Source of the DNA: Clostridiales bacterium
Lineage (GTDB): Bacteria; Bacillota; Clostridia; Christensenellales; UBA1242
Length of the DNA: 64,000 nucleotides
Assembly: GCA_015055605.1 (NCBI GenBank)
Contig: SVHV01000002.1
Coordinates: 216,049 to 280,048 of the forward strand
Direction: 5' to 3'
Positions 50,219-62,447 of the stretch are shown here, in pieces; position 1 is the first letter of the stretch, and every line of letters starts with the position of its first letter. Made by a program: the position numbers and the translations under genes. The notes under the pieces are model-generated. The model did not search any database. It was not told where the DNA came from and was given only the letters and a program-made list of their open reading frames with translations.

Positions 50219-50851
50219 ATGCCTAAATTAGATGATATTATGAATGTGGTGCAAAAACTGGCAAGTATTGAAGGTGTGGGAGAACACTTATGCTTTTTTG
50301 GTGGCTCTGTGCCTTATATGTTACATGGTATAGATTCTAATAGAGAACATTCAGATATTGATGTTTTAGTTGGAGAGAGTTACATGTCGGCCATTAGAGA
50401 ATGGGCTCAAGACGAGCAGAATGGTTGTCATTATAATTCTGACTTAGACTCTTTAAATTTAGGATTAAATGACGATTATGGTTTCAAGGTATATATTGAT
50501 GGCGTATATGTAGAGTTTGAGCCGTCAGTTGCCCAGAATGGTGTTTTTGTCCGAAAAAGTTTTAGTCCTAATAGGGGGCTTGCTGGTAGGGAAGAGATAC
50601 CTTTTGAGAATATAGAAGATATAATGACCAGTGTTAATATTGGTGGAGCACAAACATTCTTTCAGAGTGTAGAGATGATTAAGGCAGGTAAAGAGCAATA
50701 CAGGAGAGAAAAGGACTTGCAAGATATAGCGTTTATTGAAAGTCAAGGTTACGATACTGAGAGGTACGCTAGAGTAAAACAAGCCTTAGAGTCTAAAAAA
50801 GAGATAATAGGTAGTTATGCTGAACTGCAAACTTCAACTCAAGATATGTAA
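50219..50851 (+). CDS. Pol-beta-superfamily nucleotidyltransferase, Lnu(A)/ANT(2'')-like
   Basis: FFGGSVPYMLHGIDSNREHSDIDVLV closely parallels the GG...G...REHxDID active-site stretch I recall from Lnu(A)-type enzymes. Confidence 0.5.
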   Translation: MPKLDDIMNVVQKLASIEGVGEHLCFFGGSVPYMLHGIDSNREHSDIDVLVGESYMSAIREWAQDEQNGCHYNSDLDSLNLGLNDDYGFKVYIDGVYVEFEPSVAQNGVFVRKSFSPNRGLAGREEIPFENIEDIMTSVNIGGAQTFFQSVEMIKAGKEQYRREKDLQDIAFIESQGYDTERYARVKQALESKKEIIGSYAELQTSTQDM

Positions 50852-50886
50852 AAAAGAACAACTGATTTAGTTGTTCTTTTTTTTTT
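50852..50886. terminator. Bidirectional terminator between convergent genes
   Basis: AGAACAACT-5nt-AGTTGTTCT flanked by A5 and T10. Confidence 0.8.
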
Positions 50887-50888
50887 GC

Positions 50889-52148
50889 TTAGTTATTGTC
50901 GTGCATTATTTTAGATACTTCTTTGTGAGATAGTAGTTCTTTTTTCATTAGCGACTTTGCGACTTTGTCGAGTAGATTCATATTATTAGATAATAATTCT
51001 TTGCTTCTTTGATAATATTTGTCTAGTTCGTGACCGATTTGTTTAGCAATATACTCAGGAATGGCCTCTCTTCTCTCTGAATTGTGGTAATTACTAAAGC
51101 CATACTCACAATACTCAGTCACTAGTCTTTTTGCTATTCTATGAGCTCTGTCGATATCTGAGCCAGCACCGATATCTACTTTGCCGTACTTAAGTTCAAT
51201 TGCTGCCCTTCCTGCGAGTAGGGTAATAATTCTATTCTCCATATATTTCTTATCTACCCAGTAGTCGTCACACTCGTAGTAAGCAGTGAATCCTCCTATA
51301 TTACCCATGTGATTAGCGATAGTTACTAGAGATACACTATGTGGCTGTAATAGTTCTGCTACAACGGCGTGTCCTGCCTCGTGATAAGCAATGACTTCGA
51401 TTTGCTTTTCAGTTCTGCCATAGATATTAGTTGGAGCACCGAAAGCAGTCTTTACATAGGCTTTCATGATGTCGTCCATCTCGATTTGGCTCTTGTTTGC
51501 ATAACCTGCAACAACTCCAGCCTTATTGATAAGACTCTCTAATTCTGCACAAGAGTAACCATTGAGGAGTTTGGATATCTCGTCTATGTCTAAAGTTGCT
51601 ACATATTTCTTTTGGCTTAGGTAATACTCAATTATTTTCTTTGCGTCTTCGCCTTGAGGGTTTTGTACTTGAATCTTTTCGTCAAATCTACCCTCTCTAA
51701 GTAATGAGTCTGGTAGTAGGTACTTAGCGTTAACAGTGGCGATTACTAATACATTTTTATTTTTCACCTCGTCCATACAGGCTTGTACTGTTACATACTC
51801 TTCTGTATTAGGTCTAGTGTAGTCCTCGTTTGCAAATTTGTCTAGGTCGTCTAGTAAAACTATTGAAGGAGCATTCTTTACTGCTTCGTCAAAAGTTTCT
51901 TTTATATGATTGATAAATTCTCCGTTTGGTTTGTTTTTTCTGCATATAAATCCGGGTCTGCCACTAGCCTCGATTAGGCAGTTTGCCATTAAACTCTTGC
52001 CCACACCTGGGTCGCCATGAAACATAATGCCCTTAGGTAGTCTTGCTCCTAGTGCATCGTATTTGTCTGGATGTTGCATAATGTCTGCAAACTTCCTAAG
52101 TTCAGTTTTTATTCCTTCGTATCCTATGATTTTGTCTAAGCAATCCAT
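50889..52148 (-). CDS. Soluble FtsH-like AAA+ ATPase / M41 zinc metalloprotease lacking transmembrane and periplasmic regions
   Basis: Walker A GDPGVGKS, Walker B VLLDDLD (D in place of the usual E), SRH LLREGRFDEKIQV, zinc site HEAGHAV and GAGSDIDRAHRIA; the protein begins directly at the AAA module. Confidence 0.8.
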   Translation of the reverse strand: MDCLDKIIGYEGIKTELRKFADIMQHPDKYDALGARLPKGIMFHGDPGVGKSLMANCLIEASGRPGFICRKNKPNGEFINHIKETFDEAVKNAPSIVLLDDLDKFANEDYTRPNTEEYVTVQACMDEVKNKNVLVIATVNAKYLLPDSLLREGRFDEKIQVQNPQGEDAKKIIEYYLSQKKYVATLDIDEISKLLNGYSCAELESLINKAGVVAGYANKSQIEMDDIMKAYVKTAFGAPTNIYGRTEKQIEVIAYHEAGHAVVAELLQPHSVSLVTIANHMGNIGGFTAYYECDDYWVDKKYMENRIITLLAGRAAIELKYGKVDIGAGSDIDRAHRIAKRLVTEYCEYGFSNYHNSERREAIPEYIAKQIGHELDKYYQRSKELLSNNMNLLDKVAKSLMKKELLSHKEVSKIMHDNN

Positions 52149-52200
52149 ATAGTGTCTCCTTTAGTGAAAATTTTTATTGTACTTATTATAAGGTATTGTA

Positions 52201-52217
52201 TGTACCAAAATTTGTAC
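52201..52217. promoter_or_regulatory. Island palindrome copy a: TGTACCAAAATTTGTAC
   Basis: Read directly; between the phosphatase stop and the FtsH-like start. Confidence 0.6.
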
Positions 52218-52224
52218 TTCGTGT

Positions 52225-52905
52225 TTATTTTGTGTAAAATTCTTTCATGTCTTCTTTTCTTAAAATGCCTAACATTCTCGTATAGCTAACACCTGTATCT
52301 AGTCTGATTCTGGAGTAGGAGGAGAAGTTGTTGCGATTGTGATTTCGCTTAAGTGTTTTTATAAACTTGCCAGTGTTGTTGGTATATACACAGGGTGTGT
52401 GTCCTAATAAGATAGGTTTGTCTAGGCTAATGCCTTTGGTCTGAATGAAGTTCCTGTCGTATATCAAATAATTTGTATTTTGTTGTTCTAGAGGTAATAC
52501 TTTATTGTTAACAACTTCTAGTCCTGCATGTACACAGATAAAGTCCTCGGTTTCTATATAGTATGGTAAATTAGATAAATAAGAAATTTCTTTTGCTGTG
52601 ATTTCTTCGTTGTTTGATGGGAAGTAAGTATTTATTTCTCTTATAATTTCCTCGTCTTCTAGTTGTGAGGGGGTTAGTGCTATTTCTCTAACATATTGTA
52701 AGAAGGTGGCTTCATGATTGCCTAGAATAGCAATCATATTTTTGTTCTCTATAATGAACTTTAGTAATTTAATAGAGTCTTTGCCTTTGTCTATGATGTC
52801 GCCGAGTATATATAGGGTGTCATTTTTATTGAAATTAATTTCTTTTAATAATTCAATAAATAGCTCATATTCGCCATGGATGTCGGATATAAAATATGTT
52901 GCCAT
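52225..52905 (-). CDS. PPP-family metallophosphoesterase (PrpA/lambda-phosphatase/ApaH-like)
   Basis: SDIHGE, LGDIIDKGKDS, GNHE, HAG and GHTP motifs in canonical order. Confidence 0.8.
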   Translation of the reverse strand: MATYFISDIHGEYELFIELLKEINFNKNDTLYILGDIIDKGKDSIKLLKFIIENKNMIAILGNHEATFLQYVREIALTPSQLEDEEIIREINTYFPSNNEEITAKEISYLSNLPYYIETEDFICVHAGLEVVNNKVLPLEQQNTNYLIYDRNFIQTKGISLDKPILLGHTPCVYTNNTGKFIKTLKRNHNRNNFSSYSRIRLDTGVSYTRMLGILRKEDMKEFYTK

Positions 52906-52949
52906 GTTATTCTCCTTATTTTGAATCGGCTTTATTGTATATTAATCAA

Positions 52950-52967
52950 TGTACAAAATTTGGTACA
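52950..52967. promoter_or_regulatory. Island palindrome copy b: TGTACAAAATTTGGTACA in the divergent control region
   Basis: Read directly; lies in the 106-bp gap between divergent genes 52905(-) and 53012(+). Confidence 0.65.
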
Positions 52968-53011
52968 ATGGTTTATTTATAATATGAATAATATGTTTTC
53001 TAGGAGGAAGT

Positions 53012-53467
53012 ATGGGCGTAGTTATTAATGATTTAGCAGATTTGAAAAATTTTATCAAGTTAAAACACAGTAAAAAAAAGATTGAAATGAAATTTGATGA
53101 TGTGGTGTTTAATTGTGTATTGCCACACAAAAGGCATTTTAATTATTTTTGCGAGCAGGATATACAAGATTATGATGTTAGTATAATTGCAAAGAGTGTT
53201 ACCTTTAATTATCCTGCAGAGATAGATAATCTTCATGCTAGTCAAGTCGTGGCGAATGATTCGCTAATTTGCGAATTGATAAATGTGATAGGAGATGTGA
53301 GAGGGGCATATATAGCAACCAACTCTTTTATTGGCATTGATATAACAGCGGGTACTTTTGTTGTTAAGAATCTTGTTTGTCGGCATATTAAAGTCAAACT
53401 ATTAGTTCTTAATAATGAAGATTATCCATATCTAAAAGCAGATGCTATTAATAATATAGGGGTGTAA
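53012..53467 (+). CDS. Hypothetical protein P1 (151 aa), paralog of P2
   Basis: RBS AGGAGG; N-terminus INDLADLKNFIK parallels P2 INKIEDLKPFIK; alternating hydrophobic pattern suggests a beta-rich repeat. Confidence 0.55.
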   Translation: MGVVINDLADLKNFIKLKHSKKKIEMKFDDVVFNCVLPHKRHFNYFCEQDIQDYDVSIIAKSVTFNYPAEIDNLHASQVVANDSLICELINVIGDVRGAYIATNSFIGIDITAGTFVVKNLVCRHIKVKLLVLNNEDYPYLKADAINNIGV

Positions 53468-53468
53468 T

Positions 53469-54059
53469 ATGATTGAGATTAATAAGATTGAAGACTTGAA
53501 ACCATTTATTAAGTATGTGGACAAAAAATACACTAATGGAATATATCCTGCTATTAATTTTGAATTTAAAATACATGGTGAATTGCAAGATGTTGAGATT
53601 AAATGTGACCTACAACTGATTGAGGAAAATATGAATATTTTTTATGGTGAACTTGATGATGTGTTGTCGCTAGTAGATATAGATGAGGGGTATTGTGTAA
53701 ACTTTTTTGCTAAAAATGTTTATGCGAAAAAAATATTCGATTGTGAACATCTGAAGTGCGAAAATTTTTATATTGAGAAAGAGTCAAAAGTAGATTTTTT
53801 GGTTGTGGCTGATACTATTAAGGGTAGGATATTAAAGGCTCAAGATATATTTTGTGATAATTTAGATATAGACATTGTTGATTGTAGTTTTTTAAATGCT
53901 CTTAATGTAAAAGCAAAAGTTTATAAGGGTAAAGGTGCAGTCTTTACAAATGTTGAATATCACAACCCAGACTTTCCAAAAGAATTGGTTGAGAGTTGGG
54001 GTAGTAATGAATCTAAGCCGTATGGTATTGTGTATCAACATGATAGGCTATTGTTTTAA
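53469..54059 (+). CDS. Hypothetical protein P2 (196 aa), paralog of P1
   Basis: ATG 1 nt after the P1 stop (TAATATG); shared N-terminal motif and repetitive A..V.A..I pattern. Confidence 0.55.
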   Translation: MIEINKIEDLKPFIKYVDKKYTNGIYPAINFEFKIHGELQDVEIKCDLQLIEENMNIFYGELDDVLSLVDIDEGYCVNFFAKNVYAKKIFDCEHLKCENFYIEKESKVDFLVVADTIKGRILKAQDIFCDNLDIDIVDCSFLNALNVKAKVYKGKGAVFTNVEYHNPDFPKELVESWGSNESKPYGIVYQHDRLLF

Positions 54060-54075
54060 AAATGTATTGTAACAA

Positions 54076-54093
54076 TGTACCAAATATTGGACA
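54076..54093. promoter_or_regulatory. Island palindrome copy c: TGTACCAAATATTGGACA upstream of the DUF2779 gene
   Basis: Read directly; 38 nt upstream of an extended -10 TGTTATAAT (54131-54139). Confidence 0.6.
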
Positions 54094-54130
54094 TAGTACA
54101 ATAAAATTGCTTTCTTGATGGTGGGAATTG

Positions 54131-54139
54131 TGTTATAAT
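54131..54139 (+). promoter_or_regulatory. Extended -10 promoter element TGtTATAAT
   Basis: Read directly; 24 nt upstream of ATG 54163 (RBS AGAGAGG). Confidence 0.5.
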
Positions 54140-54162
54140 GGTTGTATGTAAGAGAGGTGCGT

Positions 54163-55659
54163 ATGCATTTTAGCAAATCGAAATATTGTGGGTTTTATCA
54201 GTGTCCAAAGATTACATGGCTAAAGAAAAACAAGCCAGAAGAGTTTGTTCCTGACGAGGCGGCACTAGGTCGTATGGCTAGTGGTAATGAACTAGGCGAC
54301 CTTGCTATGGGGATTTTTGGAGATTTTGTAGAAACAACAACCTATACTGATGATAAATTAGATATTCCTCAGATGATAGAAAAAACTAAAGAGTATATGG
54401 CTAAAGGTGAGGCTGTTATATGTGAGGCGTCTTTTGAATATGATGGCTTGTATTGTGCAGTAGATATACTTAAGAAAGAGCCTGGTGGTTATAGTATTTA
54501 TGAGGTAAAGAGTTCTACTCATGAGCATAATTTTGCATACATTGTAGATGTTTCGTACCAGAAATATGTGCTAGAAAAGTGTGGAGTAAATATTGTGTCG
54601 GTCAATCTAGTGACAGTTAATAACGATTATGTCTTTGATGGCACACTTAAACTAAATGAGCTTTTCAAAATCACTAATGTAGATCAACAAGTTGCTGACG
54701 AAATTGATAAAGTAGAGCCTAATCTAATTGATGCAGAAAAGATACTTGAGAGAGAAGACGAACCTAATATGGATATAAGTGTTAAGTGTCATACTCCTTA
54801 TGTTTGTGGTTTCTGGAAATACTGTACAAAGCATATTCCAGAGGTGTCAGTATTTAATCTATATAGAACAGACTTTCAGAAGAAATTGAACTATTATTAT
54901 AATGGCATTATTACTATGGAAGATTTGGCTAATTGTGGCGAGTATTTGGGTGATAAACAAAATATGCAGATACTACACGCTACCAGTGATTTGCCTGACC
55001 ATATTGATGCAGAGGGTATAAAAAAGTTCTTAGGTAAACTATCTTATCCTCTATACTTTTTAGACTTTGAAACCATGCAATTACCAATACCTCAGTTTGT
55101 TGGAACTAAACCATATCAGCAGATACCTTTTCAATATTCTCTGCATTATATAGAGTCTATGGGTGGAGAACTTAAGCATAAAGAGTTCCTTGCTGAATCG
55201 GGCGAAGACCCTAGAAGGGCAATTGCTGAGAGTCTATGTAGAGATATTCCTCAGAATGTATGTGTTCTAGCATATAATAAAGGCTTTGAGAGTGGTAGAC
55301 TTAGTGAACTGGCTGAGACTTTTCCAGACCTAAAGGATCATTTATTGAATATTGCTATTAATATGAAAGACCTAATTGACCCTTTTAGAGATGGTTATGT
55401 GTACAATAGGAGAATGGGAGGTTCGTTCTCAATTAAGAGTGTGTTACCTGCGTTATTTCCTAATGCACCAGAATTGGACTATCACAACCTTGATGGTGTA
55501 CATAATGGAGGAGAGGCTATGAGTATCTTCCCTAAAATCAAAGATATGTCACCAGAGGATAGAGAGAGGGCTAGGAATAGCCTGCTTAAATACTGCGAAC
55601 TAGATACTTTTGCAATGGTGAAAATATTTGAGTATCTTGTAAATGCAGTAAAGGAGTAA
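54163..55659 (+). CDS. DUF2779-type protein: Cas4-like PD-(D/E)XK nuclease with 4Fe-4S cysteines plus C-terminal DEDD/RNase-H-like module
   Basis: N-terminus FSKSKYCGFYQCPKITWL, VDIL..YEVKSS nuclease core, C-x7-C-x5-C (CHTPYVCGFWKYC), FLDFET exonuclease-like motif; start moved to ATG 54163. Confidence 0.7.
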   Translation: MHFSKSKYCGFYQCPKITWLKKNKPEEFVPDEAALGRMASGNELGDLAMGIFGDFVETTTYTDDKLDIPQMIEKTKEYMAKGEAVICEASFEYDGLYCAVDILKKEPGGYSIYEVKSSTHEHNFAYIVDVSYQKYVLEKCGVNIVSVNLVTVNNDYVFDGTLKLNELFKITNVDQQVADEIDKVEPNLIDAEKILEREDEPNMDISVKCHTPYVCGFWKYCTKHIPEVSVFNLYRTDFQKKLNYYYNGIITMEDLANCGEYLGDKQNMQILHATSDLPDHIDAEGIKKFLGKLSYPLYFLDFETMQLPIPQFVGTKPYQQIPFQYSLHYIESMGGELKHKEFLAESGEDPRRAIAESLCRDIPQNVCVLAYNKGFESGRLSELAETFPDLKDHLLNIAINMKDLIDPFRDGYVYNRRMGGSFSIKSVLPALFPNAPELDYHNLDGVHNGGEAMSIFPKIKDMSPEDRERARNSLLKYCELDTFAMVKIFEYLVNAVKE

Positions 55660-55663
55660 ATTT

Positions 55664-56659
55664 ATGCCATTAGACAGTAATAAGAAGTTATATATAATGT
55701 ATATCTTAAAGGTATTAAGAGAAGAAAGTGACGAAAAGCATCCTCTTAGACAATTAGATATAATTAACAAAGTTAAGTCTAGATATAATGTTGATAATAT
55801 CGACAGAAAGACCATTGCTAGAACAATAGATAGCTTAATAGACATGGGTGTCGATATTGTTAAATTAGAAGGTGGAGGCTGTTACCTTGCAGATAGGGAA
55901 CTTGAGCCTAGCGAGATTACTTTTTTAATTGATGCTATATTCTCTAGTCGTGCTTTGAATTGTAAACAAGCCAAAGATTTGTCTGACAAACTCTCTAAAT
56001 TGCTTAGTGTACATCAAAGAAACAGATTTAAGTATGTGCATAAGTCAGATGAGGTTGTGAGGACCGACAATAAACAACTGTTTCTAAATATTGATATGAT
56101 AAGCGAGGCTATAGAAAAGGGTAAACAAATCTCTTTTAATTACACTAGACATTATTTTGATAAAAATAAAAATGCCGAGCAAGAAGAAAAAGAGTATATA
56201 ATCAATCCATACTTTATGGTTAATAATCAAGGAAAGTATTACCTTGTGTGTAATTATGATTATTATAATGATGTGGCTAATTATAAAATTGAGCAAATCA
56301 GAAATGTGAAAATATTAGACACAGATATTAAGCCTATTACCAAACTGAAAGATTGTGAAAATGGTTTAGATAAGGCTAAATTTATCAATGAAAATATTTA
56401 TATGTTTAACAATCAGACTGTATCGGCAGTGATTAAAGTTGGTGACGAGTATGCGGTTAATTATATTGTAGACTGGTTTGGCAAGGACGCTAGACTTTAT
56501 AGTAAAGATGGCGACATACTAGCATCTGTGAGAGTCAATGAACAAGCACTAATATACTGGTGTCTACAATATGGCGAAAGTGTTGAACTTGTATCTCCGG
56601 AGACAACTAGAGAAAAAATTAAAGATATTGTGAAGATATTATATAAAAAATACCAGTAA
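55664..56659 (+). CDS. wHTH-WYL-WCX transcriptional regulator (BrxR/CapW-like architecture)
   Basis: N-terminal winged HTH (YILKVLREESDEKHPLRQLDIINKV), WYL core GKYYLVCNY...NYKIEQIRNVKIL, C-terminal extension; starts 4 nt after the DUF2779 stop. Confidence 0.75.
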   Translation: MPLDSNKKLYIMYILKVLREESDEKHPLRQLDIINKVKSRYNVDNIDRKTIARTIDSLIDMGVDIVKLEGGGCYLADRELEPSEITFLIDAIFSSRALNCKQAKDLSDKLSKLLSVHQRNRFKYVHKSDEVVRTDNKQLFLNIDMISEAIEKGKQISFNYTRHYFDKNKNAEQEEKEYIINPYFMVNNQGKYYLVCNYDYYNDVANYKIEQIRNVKILDTDIKPITKLKDCENGLDKAKFINENIYMFNNQTVSAVIKVGDEYAVNYIVDWFGKDARLYSKDGDILASVRVNEQALIYWCLQYGESVELVSPETTREKIKDIVKILYKKYQ

Positions 56660-56668
56660 GTAAAACGG

Positions 56669-56686
56669 TGTACTAAATTTGGTACA
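56669..56686. promoter_or_regulatory. Island palindrome copy d: TGTACTAAATTTGGTACA (may double as the WYL terminator hairpin)
   Basis: Read directly; followed by TGTTTTTG. Confidence 0.55.
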
Positions 56687-56837
56687 CTGTTTTTGTTATG
56701 ATTAGATTATAGATGGTTCTTGTGGACGATAAATAGAGTGATTTTAATATATTGTTTAGTGGGTTTGATAGTATGTAATTTTGTTTATATACTTACATTA
56801 AAAATTAGATGTACTATATCAAACCAAAGGGGGTTAT

Positions 56838-57341
56838 ATGAAATTTGAGGTTAGGCTATGTAGCGTGCTAGATAGTGGTACAGATATAATAGTTAATGCA
56901 GCTAATAATTATTTGTCTAGAGGCGGCGGTGTTTGTGGTGCGATTTTTGAGAGGGCAGGAGCAGAACTGCTCGAGGCTGAATGTAGAGTGTGGGGGTATG
57001 TTAAAACTGGCTCAGTTGCTACTACTAATGGATTTCAATCTGGTGCTAAATATATTATTCATGCTGTTGGTCCAAACTTTTATATAGACCATCAGGATTG
57101 GCAAGAGAAACTAGAGAGTGTGTATAAAAAATCGCTACTCGTGGCTGACGACTTGGGTGTAAATAGTATTGCTTTTCCTTGTATATCTACTGGAATATTT
57201 GGCTGTCCTATAGAAGAGTCTGCTAAGATTGCTGTGAGGGTTGTTAGAGAGTTTCAGCCCAAAAACCTAAAGAATTGTGTACTTTGTTGTTTTACAGACG
57301 GAGAATATTCTGTCTATAATGCATTACTGTATAGCAAGTAA
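56838..57341 (+). CDS. Stand-alone macro domain protein (MacroD/YmdB-like ADP-ribose hydrolase)
   Basis: IVNAANNYLSRGGGVCGAIFERAG, IIHAVGP, IAFPCISTGIFG motifs. Confidence 0.85.
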   Translation: MKFEVRLCSVLDSGTDIIVNAANNYLSRGGGVCGAIFERAGAELLEAECRVWGYVKTGSVATTNGFQSGAKYIIHAVGPNFYIDHQDWQEKLESVYKKSLLVADDLGVNSIAFPCISTGIFGCPIEESAKIAVRVVREFQPKNLKNCVLCCFTDGEYSVYNALLYSK

Positions 57342-57470: not shown

Positions 57471-57498
57471 TTGACAAATGAAAAAATTATGATATAAT
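57471..57498 (+). promoter_or_regulatory. Near-consensus promoter TTGACA-16-TGaTATAAT
   Basis: TTGACA 57471-57476, TG 57490-57491, TATAAT 57493-57498. Confidence 0.7.
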
Positions 57499-57528
57499 GG
57501 GGGCAAGATTATTATGGGGGTTGGGGTT

Positions 57529-58725
57529 ATGAAAAAGGATTCCATAAGTAGTCTTGGCGAGCATTATAGAGGGCTAGTTGGTGATATAGCCTACAATGAT
57601 AAAAATGCTACAATTAAGACAATTGTAAAAGATTATTCTTCTAAGTTTGGCACATTACAAGCCTGCTTTATGAGTGATAATCACTTGGGCTCTTCTGATA
57701 CAGATATCGAGGGCTTAATGGAGACTCTTAGATATGCAAATTCTCAAGAGAATGCTGTTATCTTTATTCTAGGAGATGCTCTTAATACTGCGATTGTTGG
57801 CAGTAAATCTGATGCTTATGAGGACATACTTTCTCCTCAAGAGCAGTTAGATGTTTTTTCTGAGGTCTTGAAACTTGCTAAAGGCAATAAAGAAGTTGCT
57901 AGAGTATTACAAGACCTAAACGATACTGGCAAAATAGTAGTCTTGCATAGTGGAAATCACGAGGACAGAATCAGAAAAGCTGTGGGTATTTCTACTACAA
58001 AACTTGCTGCAGATATTGCCGGTGTTGGAGATGTTTTCGCTCCATATTACGCTAGTACTGATTTAGTGCTTAGACAACCACTTGCTCCAGATGGTAAGTT
58101 CCATTTTGGCGTGGTTTCTCATCACGGCACAGGTATTTCTAATATAGACGGAACATTTAGACTACTTAGAACTGTAGACAATGCTAATATGTGTGTAATA
58201 GGTCACACTCATCAGCAATCTATGAAATACGAAAGAATGATTAAAGTTGACCCAGATGGTAAGCAGAGATACCATGATGTTTTGTGTCTAACACTACCTT
58301 CTAGTGGTGGTGGTACTTATGGCGCAGGTATGTCACTTCCTGATACTGCTAAACAGACAGCAGTTTGGGTTGCTATTAGTTCACAACCAAACCCTTATGC
58401 TGGTAGGATTTCTCCTACTGGTATTGAGTATCCAGATATTATCCCTGCCTGTGCGTTCTTTACTCCTACTAATACTATGGATACAAAGATTAAACAAAAA
58501 AGACACAATGCTGCAAAGAGAGTTATTGAGCAGGGTTGTGAAGAACAATTAGACTCAGTTAATGCAAAAATCAATGAAGCAGTAGATGCTATCACAGAAT
58601 TTGAGCAGTACCTCCGTAATAAAGTGCAAGGTGCTATCGTAGAGAAACCTAGAAAAAAACCTAGTGGCTATGATGCTTATGTACAAGCACTTGAAGAAAA
58701 TCAAGGTGAAAAGGGAGGAATGTAA
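57529..58725 (+). CDS. Calcineurin-like metallophosphoesterase with complete active-site motifs and coiled-coil tail
   Basis: SDNH, LGDALN, SGNHED, SHHG, GHTHQ in canonical order; ATG 57529 behind the G-rich RBS preferred over ATG 57514. Confidence 0.75.
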   Translation: MKKDSISSLGEHYRGLVGDIAYNDKNATIKTIVKDYSSKFGTLQACFMSDNHLGSSDTDIEGLMETLRYANSQENAVIFILGDALNTAIVGSKSDAYEDILSPQEQLDVFSEVLKLAKGNKEVARVLQDLNDTGKIVVLHSGNHEDRIRKAVGISTTKLAADIAGVGDVFAPYYASTDLVLRQPLAPDGKFHFGVVSHHGTGISNIDGTFRLLRTVDNANMCVIGHTHQQSMKYERMIKVDPDGKQRYHDVLCLTLPSSGGGTYGAGMSLPDTAKQTAVWVAISSQPNPYAGRISPTGIEYPDIIPACAFFTPTNTMDTKIKQKRHNAAKRVIEQGCEEQLDSVNAKINEAVDAITEFEQYLRNKVQGAIVEKPRKKPSGYDAYVQALEENQGEKGGM

Positions 58726-58727
58726 TT

Positions 58728-60074
58728 ATGTCAGATATTGTTACTAAGATTGCTCATGGTGAAGTTGATGACAAAATTGATGTAGATTACATCAGAAGAA
58801 GTGGCGACTATATCAGAGAAAGGATTTTGGACGCAACTGAAGTTGACTTGTCTAGGACTGCTCCTAATGTATTTAATTATGTTATGCCTAGAAATAGTTT
58901 AGGCTTAAACGAGATTAGTAATGTAGATATGGGCTATGCTGGTACTAGTGTAGACTTTGCTGGCGAGCATTTGTCTAAGAGAAATCCATATCTAAAAGAG
59001 TTAGAGTATAATGTATCCCTTATGAGAGATAGCGAAAATGCTATTGTCATTCTTAATGGTGGATTATTTAGTTATGTGCCAAAGACTCAACATGGCAGAT
59101 TGCTTTCTTATCAAGAACAGATTGCTTACTTCTATTCTTTATTTAAAGATTTGGCTGATCAGGGAAAGATTGTTGCTATGGTTAGAGGAACAGAAGAGCA
59201 TAGAATTCTTAAAAACCATCAGATAGATGTTTTATCTGTATTACAAGAGGCTCTAGGCCTTCAACAAAAGGTATGTAATGATGCCCTTGTGAATGTTGCT
59301 ATTGAGGACGATATGGTTGGTAGAGCAAATGTTGGTATTAGAACTATTAACTGGAATAATACTGCAACAACAGGTGCTTATATCGGTCGTAAGATGGAAG
59401 AGAGAGCAACCAAAAGAGGTGGTGCAGATATTTATATTGCTAGAACAACTATGAATTACTTTAAGACTGCTGTAATAGGTGAGAGTGATGGTACTCATAT
59501 CAGAAAGAAACCTATCTATCTATTATCTGGTGGCTCATATACTCCATTCAAGGGTGCGATGACTGCTGGTGCAGAGTATAATTCTATTAAAGATGGCGAA
59601 CTACCTCCTAATAGTTTCTGGTACAAGGTTACTATTGAAGAAAAAGCTCCAGAGATTGATGGGGATAGACCTTATATTGTTAGAGTTAATCCTATTCAGT
59701 ACACTGCTCACCAGATTACACTTCAAGGTACTGATGAATTAGTTGCTGGAATTGAGAACGAAATCGAGGCTAAGACTGACGGTTTGGTTCAGGGCTTTGT
59801 AGATAGATTTTCTACTGCAATATCTACTCCTAGAGAAGAGGGTAGAAAGAGAATTAGAGAAATCTTGATTAATAATAAAAAGGTGGCGGCACAAAATACA
59901 GATATTGCTAAGTATGTTGCTGCTAAGAAAGGAAAGGGTGCTTATGTTGAGTCCCCAGCTAGAATAGAGGACCTAGGTAGTAATGTGCCAGTTAAGAAAC
60001 CTATAACTATCATTGACGGTGTTACAAATCTTGAAGAAGTAACCCCTGCTCCCGAAGAAGACCTACTTCCTTAG
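58728..60074 (+). CDS. Degenerate (probably inactive) paralog of the upstream metallophosphoesterase
   Basis: Blockwise similarity ENAIVILNGGLFS / ENAVIFILGDALN, LLSYQEQI / ILSPQEQL, GKIVAMVRGTEEHRI / GKIVVLHSGNHEDRI, IARTT / IGHTH; metal ligands substituted; ATG 2 nt after the upstream stop. Confidence 0.65.
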   Translation: MSDIVTKIAHGEVDDKIDVDYIRRSGDYIRERILDATEVDLSRTAPNVFNYVMPRNSLGLNEISNVDMGYAGTSVDFAGEHLSKRNPYLKELEYNVSLMRDSENAIVILNGGLFSYVPKTQHGRLLSYQEQIAYFYSLFKDLADQGKIVAMVRGTEEHRILKNHQIDVLSVLQEALGLQQKVCNDALVNVAIEDDMVGRANVGIRTINWNNTATTGAYIGRKMEERATKRGGADIYIARTTMNYFKTAVIGESDGTHIRKKPIYLLSGGSYTPFKGAMTAGAEYNSIKDGELPPNSFWYKVTIEEKAPEIDGDRPYIVRVNPIQYTAHQITLQGTDELVAGIENEIEAKTDGLVQGFVDRFSTAISTPREEGRKRIREILINNKKVAAQNTDIAKYVAAKKGKGAYVESPARIEDLGSNVPVKKPITIIDGVTNLEEVTPAPEEDLLP

Positions 60075-60086
60075 TTGAATAATAAA

Positions 60087-60116
60087 AGAGTAGACGAGAT
60101 GTCTGCTCTTTTTTTT
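60087..60116 (+). terminator. Intrinsic terminator
   Basis: AGAGTAGAC-5nt-GTCTGCTCT plus T8. Confidence 0.75.
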
Positions 60117-60142
60117 GTTGTGCAATTAATTTTTATTTGTGG

Positions 60143-60220
60143 ACAAAAGTACACGAAAATATTGTTTGGTTTATTGTGGTTGAGTGGTTTTAGTGTACAA
60201 AAAGCAATACAAAAGTACAC
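60143..60220. repeat. GTAC-cored repeats: ACAAAAGTACAC x2 (60143, 60209) and inverted GTGTAC/GTACAC (60193/60215)
   Basis: Read directly, immediately upstream of TTGACA at 60229. Confidence 0.6.
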
Positions 60221-60282
60221 AAATGCTATTGACATTAGTGTGTTATTGTGTTAGTATAAGTTTGATAACGGAGGTAATTATA

Positions 60283-61335
60283 ATGTCAAGAATAAAAACA
60301 CAAGAAGAGGTTGCTAAGTTTATAAAAGAAAAAATGAATGATAAGGGAATTAAAAAATCTATTGACCTTGCTAGAGCTGTTTCAATATGTAAGTATGGTC
60401 ATGAGATGGGGAGTAGACCAGATAATATTGATGCTATCAAGTATAGTGTGAGCAAGTGGCTACAATGGGAGAACAAAGATAAATCTAGATTTCCTGGCAC
60501 TGAGTATATATTTTATCTATCACAAGTTTTAGGGGTTACGATGGAAGAATTATTGATGGCAGGAGATGTTTGCTCAAAGTATGACAATAGACCATTTTCG
60601 TTATATGCAATAGCAAAGAGTAATAGTCCGGAGTTGCTAGAATCTGTAAGAGATAATGATAGCATAGACGGAAATTCTATTCTATCTAATTATGATGAGT
60701 TTGATAAAACACTACTGCATTATATTTTAGAGTTTGATAGTAGAGAATTGTTGCAATATATGATAGACAATGGCTATGTAAGATTTGAAAATACAGGTTT
60801 TACAATATATGTGACAATGTGGGGAATGTATTTTAATACAGAGTTATATTCAAAAATTGTGAAGATGGCTATCAAGTATGATGATATTAATATTTTTAGA
60901 AGTGCGATTAATAGAGTGTTGCCCTTGTATAAAGATATGTTAGATGAAGAGGATATGCTTAAGATTTTAGATACTACTGAAATATTTAAGTATCTCACTA
61001 CTCCTTATGTTGCTACTGCTGAGGAGTGGAGAATGGTTAATCCTGGTATTACATATATAGATAATGAATCTACTGAAGCATTAAAAGGGGTGCAGGTTTT
61101 ACCTATCTTATTTAATAACTTGTTGGCAGTTGCAAAAGATAGTCAAAATGATAAACTAGACTTACTTAGGGATATTGCGAAGAAACACAATAAAACTACA
61201 ATGGACTTGATAAATAGATTTTACTCTAGAAAAGAATTTGAAATACTTGAAGACGGACGACTTACTTCGGGTAGGTATGGTTGGCTTACAGTTTTAGGTA
61301 TGGAAGATGGGAAAGTTGTAGGAGAGGGTGCTTGA
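60283..61335 (+). CDS. XRE-like HTH protein with helical-repeat (possibly ankyrin-like) C-domain
   Basis: ATG 60283 behind RBS GGAGG; HTH stretch IDLARAVSI...KYSVSKWLQWEN; KTLLHYILEFDSRELLQYMIDNGY resembles an ANK repeat (weak). Confidence 0.55.
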   Translation: MSRIKTQEEVAKFIKEKMNDKGIKKSIDLARAVSICKYGHEMGSRPDNIDAIKYSVSKWLQWENKDKSRFPGTEYIFYLSQVLGVTMEELLMAGDVCSKYDNRPFSLYAIAKSNSPELLESVRDNDSIDGNSILSNYDEFDKTLLHYILEFDSRELLQYMIDNGYVRFENTGFTIYVTMWGMYFNTELYSKIVKMAIKYDDINIFRSAINRVLPLYKDMLDEEDMLKILDTTEIFKYLTTPYVATAEEWRMVNPGITYIDNESTEALKGVQVLPILFNNLLAVAKDSQNDKLDLLRDIAKKHNKTTMDLINRFYSRKEFEILEDGRLTSGRYGWLTVLGMEDGKVVGEGA

Positions 61336-62447
61336 TGAGATATTTGTTTTTTGATGCTGAATCTATACACAATAGGCATAAATATTCATATACTTTTGGT
61401 TATGTGGCAACTGATGATAAGTTTAAGCTTATTGCCCCTCGAGAAGATATAGTTTTTAATCCTGATATTCCCAAAGAAGAATATGACTGGCGTGTAATCA
61501 GAACAATGATGGAGCCTAGTTATAGCCTAAAAGAAGTGATTAAGAAACCTAAATTCACTACTTACTATAAGAAAATTAGTAAAATAATATCTGTTCCTGA
61601 TACTCTATGTATAGGCTGGCAGATGGACGGAGATGTGAAGTATCTTTTGAATAATTGTCATAGATATAATCTACCTGCAATAAACTTGCGATATATAGAT
61701 GTTAGAGATATTCTTCAGATTTTAACAAAGGAACAAGTGGGGTCTCTTTCGCATGAGTATACGAAATGGTGTCATAAATTACCAGAGTTGTCTCACACTA
61801 GCGATATTGATGCAGATATGACCAAAGATGTTCTAAATGCAGTGTTTAAGAAATATAAAATAAACCTAAAAGATTTCTTGGCAGAGCATAGCGAAATTAT
61901 GGGCGAAGCTAAAGACTTTGTTTATGGTTATACAAAAAAAGAAGATGTTAGAATTGAAAATGCAAAAACAGACATTATGATTAATGGTCGTAGATTTAAG
62001 CGTTCTGTGGGAGAAAAGGGCGATGATATGTCATCTAAGTCACTTAATAAACTGTTGTTTACAAGGTATTTAGACTATGTAACAATTAATAAAGATGCAG
62101 AACACTATTTAGCAGGAAAGTCGGTTAGTATAAGCTTGAATTATGAAAGGTATCATTTTCAAAATATGGTCAAACTGGTAAAAGTTCTTAGTGAGGTTGG
62201 CGCAGAGTACAGGCTAAAGGCTACTGAGTCTGATATTCTGGTAACTTATGATGATATATTAGATGCAGAAGGAGGAATAAGGTCTTGTTCTAAACTTAAA
62301 CATGTTAAAGAATTGGGCGAAGATTGTAATATGGAAATTATGAGTTTTGATGATTTTCTTGCACTGCTAAATTTAGATAGAGAATCTTTAGATGATTTAC
62401 CTAAGATTGATGTAGAATTTTTATCAGATGAAAAATATGCTCGTTAG
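61335..62447 (+). CDS. DEDDh (DnaQ-like) 3-prime-5-prime exonuclease with C-terminal BRCT-like domain
   Basis: Exo I FFDAES, Exo II GWQMDGDVKYL, Exo III HTSDIDADMT; C-terminal LAGKSVSISLNYER...VGAEYRL...DILV BRCT-like pattern; ATG overlaps the upstream TGA (TGATG). Confidence 0.6.
   Translation: MRYLFFDAESIHNRHKYSYTFGYVATDDKFKLIAPREDIVFNPDIPKEEYDWRVIRTMMEPSYSLKEVIKKPKFTTYYKKISKIISVPDTLCIGWQMDGDVKYLLNNCHRYNLPAINLRYIDVRDILQILTKEQVGSLSHEYTKWCHKLPELSHTSDIDADMTKDVLNAVFKKYKINLKDFLAEHSEIMGEAKDFVYGYTKKEDVRIENAKTDIMINGRRFKRSVGEKGDDMSSKSLNKLLFTRYLDYVTINKDAEHYLAGKSVSISLNYERYHFQNMVKLVKVLSEVGAEYRLKATESDILVTYDDILDAEGGIRSCSKLKHVKELGEDCNMEIMSFDDFLALLNLDRESLDDLPKIDVEFLSDEKYAR

Follow-up and report, generated by a model that had tools for sequence, protein, structure and literature searches.

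In Actinobacteria, Caulobacter and Moraxellaceae, LexA-independent responses to DNA damage are under the control of WYL-domain transcription factors, namely PafBC, DriD and DdaA, respectively. Structural evidence shows that the DriD site overlaps an absent −35 element and lies at an identical distance from the −10 element in all regulated promoters, and the DriD regulon includes dnaG and recJ (PMC13004042). The mycobacterial PafBC, a WYL-WCX heterodimer that acts on a non-palindromic element, replaces −35 recognition just upstream of the −10 element and, without LexA, governs recA along with numerous other repair genes (PMC6789036, PMC7617703, PMC11804915). PafBC thus works by sigma adaptation, at RecA-NDp promoters. 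DdaA acts through a palindromic box before recA and other repair and defence genes, with ftsH among the regulated genes in basal lineages (PMC12392091). CapW and BrxR, by contrast, repress CBASS, BREX and further defence systems. These repressors, in which an RWHVR motif is conserved, combine a winged helix-turn-helix (wHTH) with WYL and WCX domains, bind as dimers to a palindrome of ~20 bp and are encoded within the clusters that they control; for CapW, single-stranded DNA (ssDNA) has been shown to be the ligand (PMC11662680). We analysed a 64,000-nucleotide stretch of DNA from a Clostridiales bacterium (contig SVHV01000002.1, positions 216,049 to 280,048; hereafter the window) that contains a cluster of six genes, among them one for a WYL regulator, with four copies of an 18-bp palindromic box. 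We observed that these boxes are conserved in related genomes, stand at a fixed distance from the −10 element, precede recurring gene families and go together with one class of WYL regulators. We consider it somewhat probable that the cluster represents the local targets of an apparently undescribed DriD/PafBC-like WYL DNA-damage regulon of gut and rumen Clostridia. For Bacillota, the literature that we found notes only that WYL-WCX proteins exist (PMC6789036, PMC7617703), and searches on DUF2779, on WYL with M41 or FtsH and on WYL in Clostridium returned no description of this regulon.

An earlier reading of the locus from its letters and open reading frames (ORFs) alone, the sequence-only reading, had reported two divergent gene units sharing a control region and four 18-bp palindromes. 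When we re-derived the six ORF coordinates and their domain content from the window we obtained the same result, with the four palindromes in place and the divergent region of 106 bp confirmed. The features are as follows, with lengths in amino acids (aa) or nucleotides (nt).

50850-50882: terminator-like hairpin, with a stem of 15 pairs and then a T-run, which separates the FtsH-like gene at its 3′ end from a convergent 210-aa ORF; left boundary of the cluster
50889-52148, minus strand: soluble FtsH-like AAA and M41 zinc metalloprotease, 419 aa
52185-52190, minus strand: −10 element TATAAT of the FtsH-like promoter, 10 nt from box 1, without a −35 element
52201-52218: box 1, TGTACCAAAATTTGTACT, 17.0 bits, in the intergenic gap between the PPP and FtsH-like genes
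52225-52905, minus strand: PPP-family (Metallophos) phosphatase, lambda/NinI/PrpA/ApaH-like, 226 aa
52906-53011: divergent control region, 106 bp
52934-52939, minus strand: −10 element TACAAT of the leftward PPP promoter, 10 nt from box 2
52950-52967: box 2, TGTACAAAATTTGGTACA, 19.6 bits, at the dead centre of the divergent region
52978-52983, plus strand: −10 element TATAAT of the rightward P1-P2 promoter, 10 nt from box 2
53012-53467, plus strand: P1, 151 aa
53469-54059, plus strand: P2, 196 aa
54076-54093: box 3, TGTACCAAATATTGGACA, 18.3 bits, ~40 nt upstream of the extended −10 element of the DUF2779-WYL operon
54131-54139, plus strand: extended −10 element TGtTATAAT of the DUF2779-WYL operon, read directly from the sequence
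54163-55659, plus strand: DUF2779 protein, 498 aa
55664-56659, plus strand: transcription factor with WYL and WCX domains and a putative wHTH, 331 aa, the presumed box binder, starting 4 nt past the DUF2779 gene
56669-56686: box 4, TGTACTAAATTTGGTACA, 21.7 bits, inside a hairpin at 56662-56693 (plus strand)
56697-56702, plus strand: −10-like element TATGAT, 10 nt past box 4, a candidate promoter toward the macro-domain gene
56838-57341, plus strand: macro-domain protein (ADP-ribose / O-acetyl-ADP-ribose hydrolase-like)

The boxes of the window are four near-identical copies of TGTAC-N8-GTACA. Allowing at most one mismatch, this form has six matches in the window against 1.9 expected, a number reached in 0 of 100 shuffles, and four of the six are the sites that begin at 52201, 52950, 54076 and 56669. 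With a matrix trained on sites of other species, the four boxes scored 17.0–21.7 bits, and the only other matches of at least 11 bits scored 15.4 (at 50308, in an ORF) and 11.4 (at 31988). Box 2 lies 44 nt from either start codon, one site for both divergent promoters. Across 1.2 Mb of loci, the matrix matched 83 sites at 14 bits or more, compared with 7.8 in local shuffles, and 24 sites at 18 bits or more, compared with 0.45. Excluding the training sites left 47, 27 and 15 matches at 14, 16 and 18 bits, set against shuffle means, computed for all sites, of 7.8, 2.1 and 0.45; these non-training matches lie upstream of WYL (8), DUF2779 (5) and PPP (3) genes. The overall consensus is TGTACC-AAAAAT-GGTACA, of which lineage variants occur. 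The FtsH-like gene is the most conserved target: a search anchored on its start codon located the box ~48 bp 5′ of the ATG in other species of Clostridia, in 36 promoters that include some at loci with no nearby WYL gene (L001, by contrast, is a locus of the window's own species). The recurrence of the box before FtsH-like, WYL, DUF2779, PPP and P1-P2 orthologues elsewhere supports the palindromes acting as operators of one regulon linked to the WYL regulator, and bears out the suggestion of the sequence-only reading that the genes are controlled together; they very probably form one regulon under this regulator.

The opposite view would explain the palindromes as terminators, or as AT-rich inverted repeats that arose by chance, and would see no more than unrelated neighbours in the genes. 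Box 4 lends itself to that view, and here the original description needed correcting: the fourth palindrome is present, but it is part of a terminator-like 14-pair hairpin with a T-run (56662-56693) that also scores as an intrinsic terminator. The AT-rich centre of the motif, moreover, resembles the intergenic DNA of the genome. We find an absence of common regulation barely credible, given that boxes 1–3 have neither flanking stem extensions nor T-runs, that enrichment over local shuffles exceeds 10-fold, that the position of the box relative to start codon and −10 element is kept across dozens of species, and that a search with a DNA pattern retrieved the same protein families. The divergence of the locus sequences also argues against assembly duplicates of one sequence. 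The LexA (Cheo) box is a different motif and was rejected as the identity of the 18-bp box.

The spacing between box and promoter provided the strictest regularity. In all 36 of 36 FtsH-like promoters the box is followed after exactly 10 nt by TATAAT, with no −35 hexamer, such that the box spans −40 to −23. Of the 49 boxes that face other genes, 23 match TATAAT at five or more of its six positions at a spacing of 10, whereas at any other spacing at most five do; for orientations of the box that face no gene the figure at spacing 10 is 7 of 81. A simple sigma-70 scan did not call the cluster promoters, because the −35 element is absent, and they were found instead by anchoring on the box. This arrangement is that of DriD, whose site likewise takes the position of the missing −35 element at a fixed distance from the −10 element (PMC13004042), and it is similar to the sigma adaptation of PafBC. 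The DUF2779-WYL operon is built differently, with its box upstream of a complete promoter, a layout that recurs in four other loci (L037, L039, L052 and L086); in three of these (L037, L039 and L086) the promoter of the regulator operon reads TTGAAT-17-TATAAT. The placement of box 3 is what would be expected of autoregulation, rather than of −35 replacement. On promoter geometry alone, the macro-domain gene downstream of box 4 is a candidate seventh member of the regulon; it is not conserved across the other FtsH-like loci.

We then considered which described WYL factors the regulator resembles. It matched the Pfam models WYL (5.6e-11, 42.7 bits against a cut-off of 21.8) and WCX (4.9e-6, 27.2 bits against a cut-off of 23.9) and the PADLOC WYL model (4.1e-26). 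No Pfam helix-turn-helix model matched at E ≤ 0.01; nevertheless, residues 1–75 are the best-conserved stretch of the family, with D23, H26, R48 and L58 invariant and K49 near-invariant, a conservation that would suit a recognition helix. A phmmer search of the single protein against the PDB gave no match. A profile of 35 homologues matched only DriD constructs (E 4e-6), the closest solved structure, and PafC (8.5e-5), and left the BrxR and CapW structures unmatched at E ≤ 0.01. The regulator shares with DriD its presumed domain order and a palindromic site, and differs in its host (Bacillota rather than Alphaproteobacteria) and in the box sequence. The DriD alignment covers the WCX domain but, of the WYL domain, only the second half, and ssDNA binding here would be by analogy. 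Relative to PafBC, the regulator stands in no pup-proteasome context, and a homodimer is implied because there is a single regulator gene and the site is a palindrome. DdaA uses another box, CGWCA-N5-TGWCG, and its hosts are Gram-negative. At the position of the WYL motif the window protein reads GKYYLVC, with Y192 and L194 invariant and Y193 nearly so across the 35 homologues.

The WYL genes that neighbour FtsH-like genes fall into two classes, that of the window being marked by HPLTQ...ERKAIGRNI. TGTAC-type boxes occur in 19 of 20 loci with this class and in 4 of 12 with the second (p 3.6e-4), an association that is the best available computational link between regulator and box. The second class, which has an HRLSQ motif and a long wing insertion, was seen in 12 loci (L012, L026, L038, L045, L049, L054, L056, L062, L070, L071, L082 and L084), in some of which its gene directly adjoins the FtsH-like gene; it presumably uses another operator, because its loci mostly have no TGTAC-type box.

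The sequence-only reading had placed the regulator among BrxR/CapW-type repressors and the cluster in a defence island. In its fullest form, this account has a CapW/BrxR-style repressor sitting on the four palindromes and blocking RNA polymerase until phage infection or DNA damage releases it, upon which nuclease, protease and phosphatase would act together as one defence or abortive-infection system. Several observations are compatible with it: boxes that overlap the core promoter from −40 to −23 could occlude it; ssDNA sensing is known for WYL repressors too (PMC11662680); the AAA module gives IetA-like PADLOC matches (9.7e-23); in one locus (L007) the FtsH-like/DUF2779/WYL trio adjoins GmrSD, a KAP NTPase and a recombinase; a Cas12a gene (L026) has a box 81 nt upstream; and in DdaA a single WYL factor controls both repair and defence genes (PMC12392091). 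As with CapW and BrxR, the regulator gene is embedded in the cluster and encodes what is presumed to be the same domain architecture. However, KYYLV stands in place of the RWHVR motif of those repressors (PMC11662680), the regulator profile does not match their structures, and the strict 10-nt spacing without a −35 element across unrelated genes is the activator-dependent pattern of DriD (PMC13004042). No recognised defence system is adjacent: PADLOC gave no system match on the cluster, only generic IetA-like AAA, Cas4 and WYL matches, in agreement with the original remark that no named system has this composition. The flanks are housekeeping, with no defence match except a generic methyltransferase 6 kb away, the 64-kb window contains no CRISPR array, and the AAA match lacks an IetS partner. 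The gene set is also not conserved as a unit, recA, addB, sbcD and ligase genes carry the same box, and a scan of viral contigs with the strict box–promoter pattern returned two uninformative matches, which also led us to reject a mainly phage-borne origin. We therefore judge the repressor-and-defence account unlikely and set aside both the repressor type and the defence island. A contribution of the nuclease, protease and phosphatase genes to defence is possible, if not the first reading, because DdaA drives repair and immunity together and some FtsH-like loci are defence-like.

Two further identifications were rejected. IetAS was excluded as the matches to IetA models are limited to the AAA part and none of 18 proteins scanned at and near the locus matched IetS, and the MoxR-vWA-FtsH ternary systems because those have two AAA domains and MoxR and vWA partners (PMC7159879).

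The regulon interpretation draws further on what the box precedes in other bacteria. In genome loci, it occurs before an NAD-dependent DNA-ligase paralogue in four species (17–22 bits) and also before a UvrD-like helicase, an HD/dGTPase-like gene and full-length FtsH, with weaker matrix matches before RtcB and Cas12a. The box-like site at the Cas12a locus (L026, 720-737, 15.6 bits) has no −10 element at the 10-nt spacing and may reflect either a link between the regulon and CRISPR or chance. We also searched metagenomes with a pattern blind to proteins, TGTACCNWWWWNGGTACA-N10-TATAAT, which returned 45 loci where a rough estimate (~10^12 positions, even base use assumed) predicts ~1 match by chance. 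The first genes downstream include RecA (L137, with its promoter read), AddB (L116) and SbcD (L106 and L130, in both of which a 1060-aa unannotated ORF follows where sbcC usually sits), as well as an RNase_T/DnaQ-type exonuclease (L117), a deoxynucleotidase and four WYL genes. Two small families of no recognised type lie behind the pattern in 10 and 4 loci, and both were already box neighbours in the genome loci. The loci selected by the pattern also hold WYL (10), DUF2779 (3), FtsH or FtsH-like (7) and PPP (2) genes. The common theme of the box targets is DNA repair and replication, as in the PafBC, DriD and DdaA regulons (PMC7617703, PMC12392091), and the cassette can be seen as a local concentration of a dispersed DNA-damage-type regulon because elsewhere the box precedes recA, addB, sbcD, the ligase paralogue and the UvrD-like helicase. 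Where the DriD regulon has dnaG and recJ (PMC13004042), this one has recA, addB, sbcD and a ligase paralogue; its top target is the soluble FtsH-like protease, accompanied by DUF2779 and PPP, and no homologues of didA or bapE were seen. From this comparative evidence, the damage- or infection-triggered induction proposed earlier is plausible.

The commonest gene behind the strict pattern is a family of ~146 aa without a Pfam match, in 10 loci. It is the same as 'cl31' of L018 and L033, and its human-gut loci include L102, L108, L111, L118–L120, L124, L126 and L129; in L102, L124 and L126 the same contig carries DUF2779 and full-length FtsH, and in L124 and L126 WYL too.

To see how far the six genes travel together, we scanned genomes with a family-specific block of 79 residues of the FtsH-like protein (A2), a scan of genome contigs with the single protein having found nothing. 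In species-representative genomes the block matched 471 stretches, from which we retained 80 loci. At 42 of these loci at least 5 kb was available on each side of the FtsH-like gene; a WYL gene was present within 5 kb of it at 23 of the 42, a PPP gene at 9 and a DUF2779 gene at 7, whereas full-length FtsH was found at 7 within 500 bp and at 8 within 2 kb. Neither P1 nor P2 occurred in any of the 80 genome loci, and the macro-domain gene was absent as well. Close relatives of the FtsH-like gene are divergent from DUF2779 and WYL genes in one locus (L007) and from a WYL gene followed by a Metallophos gene in another (L009), each with a TGTAC-N8-GTACA palindrome in the shared control region. The genes are thus repeatedly linked, but not as a fixed six-gene unit, and the earlier proposal of one six-gene system is not supported, because gene content differs between genomes.

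This variability raises the alternative of a mobile-element module, in which the FtsH-like gene, the WYL gene and variable partners derive from integrative and conjugative elements, prophage remnants or megaplasmids and the box ties induction, replication and entry exclusion to host damage. FtsK/SpoIIIE-like ATPases, a serine recombinase, a giant SNF2-like protein, a ClpP-like protease and a DUF2201 metallopeptidase occur near FtsH-like genes, the cargo differs between genomes, and FtsH homologues with ~30% identity are found in jumbo phages. The cultured Butyrivibrio proteoclasticus B316 carries its version on a plasmid, pCY186 (L142, NC_014390.1 119816-135054), with an FtsH-like gene of 40% identity, a WYL gene 6 kb off and four promoters of the form box-10 nt-TATTAT/TAATAT, which precede the FtsH-like gene (BPR_RS19030), a DnaX paralogue, a PolC paralogue and an additional ORF. 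Between the box-promoter genes stands a member of the DnaA/Hda family, and the set may be a damage-inducible replication module. Other genomes that carry the box include OZ007023.1 (Oscillospiraceae) and JNLK01000001.1 (Lachnospiraceae AC2029). In the window, by contrast, the cluster is flanked by genes for a transporter, an acyltransferase and NDK, we saw neither an integrase nor a tRNA nor repeats around it, and its GC content is similar to that of the surrounding DNA. Chromosomal recA, addB and sbcD carry the box as well, and the strict pattern is rare in viral contigs. A mobile-element origin of the whole arrangement is accordingly highly unlikely in our estimate.

Several points count against a damage regulon under an activating WYL factor. 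Box 3 and several boxes of WYL operons do not have the 10-nt geometry, and a box over −40 to −23 would suit a repressor equally. The recA, addB and UvrD-like helicase cases are single instances on short contigs of unassigned taxonomy, and the recA contig (L137) has a GC content of 47%, compared with 33–35% here. The ssDNA contacts of DriD are matched only in part: in the aligned stretch Tyr192 is kept, Trp206 is replaced by Tyr and Arg207 by Lys or Arg, and Arg204 is lost (compared with PMC9186387). Many FtsH-like loci hold a serine recombinase, FtsK-like ATPases, GmrSD, a KAP NTPase, SNF2-like or ClpP-like genes, and because such genes and a box upstream of Cas12a occur, a defence or mobile-element role is possible. 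Finally, we infer that the regulator binds the box, which ligand it has and whether it activates or represses.

The proteins under control have features of their own. The FtsH-like protein matched the Pfam models AAA (9.4e-19), AAA_lid_3 and Peptidase_M41 (6.6e-27) and aligned to residues 154–593 of E. coli FtsH, the entire cytosolic part, across which the two have the same AAA module, lid and M41 domain with HEXXH. Because it starts at the equivalent of residue 154, it has no membrane anchor; FtsH differs in having a transmembrane and periplasmic N-terminus. In an alignment of 33 members, HEAGH is invariant, including H256, E257 and H260, so the start at the AAA module and the retained zinc site noted earlier both hold. 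Family-wide, the Walker B motif is hhhhDD rather than DE, and the pore-loop segment, GEF[VI]N, is four residues shorter. The protein scored 237.2 bits against the FtsH equivalog TIGR01241, for which the cut-off is 600, and belongs to a large soluble family of ~420 aa in Clostridia. Its AAA part matches the IetA models (PADLOC 9.7e-23), but unlike IetA it carries its own protease domain and has no IetS partner.

Two recurrent neighbours of the FtsH-like gene were seen in other genomes. A protein of ~270 aa without a Pfam match ('cl4'), absent from the window, is the immediate same-strand neighbour in 17 species (at loci including L017, L024, L039, L047, L051, L055, L059, L086, L087 and L090, at ~11.0–12.0 kb) and is a likely operon partner of the protease. 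A full-length FtsH paralogue of 660–690 aa lies directly upstream of the soluble gene in ~8 species, at L039, L086, L017, L047, L051, L055 and L090 (~7.7–9.75 kb in the last five); in L039 (7696-7713) and L086 (7210-7227) it has its own box-10 nt-TATAAT promoter.

The DUF2779 protein matched PF11074 at 4.2e-46 (156.7 bits against a gathering score of 23.3). Among 13 homologues C14, D101, E114-V-K116, C209/C215/C221, D301-x-E303 and Y477..D481 are invariant, and the predicted architecture is a Cas4-like PD-(D/E)XK domain with four conserved cysteines followed by a C-terminal DEDDy 3′–5′ exonuclease domain, in line with published descriptions of the family as Cas4-like and DEDD nucleases (PMC13621843, PMC3985635). 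The Cas4-like and DEDD-like motifs reported before are therefore present and conserved, although the Pfam Cas_Cas4 model stays below threshold (17.7 bits against 22.7). A CRISPR-associated Cas4 was rejected on this score, on the lack of a repeat array in 64 kb and on the lack of another cas gene among the neighbours scanned. The most likely start is ATG 54163, with ribosome-binding site AAGAGAGG and in agreement with public gene calls, in place of TTG 54142 as first proposed. MMSYN1_0389 of JCVI-syn3.0, also PF11074, has the same two-nuclease architecture, with conserved catalytic residues and a DEDD(h/y) part related to MrfB (PMC13621843, PMC3985635); it keeps two Fe-S cysteines, whereas the family of the window keeps all four, and the window protein differs in its predicted co-transcription with a WYL regulator and in its membership of the box regulon.

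The phosphatase is a Metallophos protein (3.2e-18, 67.3 bits against a cut-off of 21.5) and resembles NinI/lambda phosphatase in PHROGs (4.3e-41), with scores for the PPP subfamilies ApaH, PrpA/B and NinI under the NCBIfam cut-offs.

P1 and P2 gave no family match. P2 begins 1 nt past the P1 stop codon, as expected of the translational coupling in the sequence-only reading; the paralogy also claimed there is weakly supported, with BLASTP giving E 0.054 over 14 aa and hhalign a probability of 56% (E 1.2e-4) over the N-terminal 63 columns. Exact copies of P2 were found on 23 contigs, which represent one species (a metagenome-assembled genome named 'Clostridiales bacterium') because all share the identical arrangement. 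A word-indexed homologue search retrieved only P2 itself, and an exhaustive search of 1.8 billion representatives gave nine matches, two of them repeat proteins, making P2 a near-orphan. Its sequence resembles the leucine-rich-repeat (LRR) stretches of a NACHT-LRR protein, and residues ~76–165 are confidently predicted to form a beta-solenoid (predicted local distance difference test, pLDDT, 80). A fold search with this model had no significant PDB match (best E 0.3, generic beta-helices), so we assign P2 no function; the single-sequence model of P1 was unusable (pLDDT 40). A second P1-P2 pair, in a pig-gut contig (P1 48% and P2 41% identity), has the same 1-nt coupling and is likewise preceded by boxes at 10-nt spacing.

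Repeat proteins also recur near FtsH-like genes. BspA-type LRR_5 proteins occur in 17 neighbourhoods, with a box-dependent promoter before the LRR gene in L041 and L141, and long WYL-WCX proteins of 550–658 aa were seen in four loci (L010 15064-17031, L015 14264-16240, L020 18018-19670 and L072 11145-13007), the one that was checked (L010) having a Pfam LRR_4 extension. Because BspA-type LRR proteins and WYL-LRR fusions recur there, one might speculate that repeat proteins serve as adaptors or sensors for the protease.

Other parts of the window can be recorded briefly. The 210-aa ORF convergent to the FtsH-like gene (50219-50851) has no family match, and the box-like site at 50308-50325 (15.4 bits) is intragenic to it. 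Downstream of the macro-domain gene, two adjacent Mre11/SbcD-like metallophosphoesterases (57514-58725 and 58728-60074, phrog_7339) are preceded by a perfect TTGACA-16-TGnTATAAT promoter (57471-57498) and followed by two ORFs of no recognised family (60184-62447). The whole region 57471-62447 is without PADLOC matches, and among all loci fetched its homologues come from the window's own species only. At 33000-36000, the GC content dips to 0.27–0.29 (surroundings ~0.35) over an 886-aa minus-strand ORF (33094-35754) that may have been horizontally acquired.

Taken as a damage regulon, the cluster might work as follows. Basal amounts of the regulator and the DUF2779 nuclease would be made from the complete promoter with the extended −10 element (54131-54139) and one box just upstream, and a regulator dimer would recognise TGTACC-N6-GGTACA. 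At the effector promoters (FtsH-like, PPP, P1-P2 and probably macro-domain), the box would fill the place of the missing −35 element 10 nt from a TAnAAT −10 element. By analogy with DriD and PafBC, ssDNA arising from damage or from phage or plasmid replication would bind the WYL domain, and the ssDNA-bound regulator would then recruit RNA polymerase to otherwise weak promoters; geometry and homology thus point to activation rather than de-repression and to ssDNA as the ligand. The predicted output in the window would be a soluble zinc protease with an AAA module, a PPP phosphatase, the DUF2779 protein with its two nuclease domains, two proteins of the beta-solenoid type and, less certainly, an ADP-ribose hydrolase, and in related genomes the same box would bring in recA, addB, sbcD, a DnaQ-like exonuclease, an NAD-ligase paralogue, a UvrD-like helicase and paralogues of replication proteins. 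Binding of the box by the WYL factor, the ssDNA signal, activation and the roles of the effectors are the steps that we infer.

More broadly, we give an even chance to an undescribed LexA-independent damage response in many gut and rumen Clostridia (Oscillospirales, Christensenellales and Lachnospirales), driven by a homodimeric DriD-like WYL activator at TGTACC-N6-GGTACA 10 nt before the −10 element. Its signature output, rather than a classical repair enzyme, would be a soluble, anchor-less FtsH-type AAA protease with a DD Walker B motif, together with DUF2779, PPP and solenoid or LRR partners, a proteolysis and nuclease programme that would also feed recA/addAB/sbcCD repair and possibly phage defence. 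The locus already corrects the tempting inference that a WYL regulator means a defence island. If the proposal is true, the box and promoter rule would allow the damage regulon to be predicted from sequence in many gut and rumen Clostridia that have not been cultured, and DUF2779 and the ~420-aa soluble FtsH-like family, present in hundreds of genomes, would gain a first functional context as damage-induced proteins. Butyrivibrio proteoclasticus B316 would then offer a cultured, testable host, and the response would bear on how gut commensals react to DNA-damaging drugs and to prophage induction.

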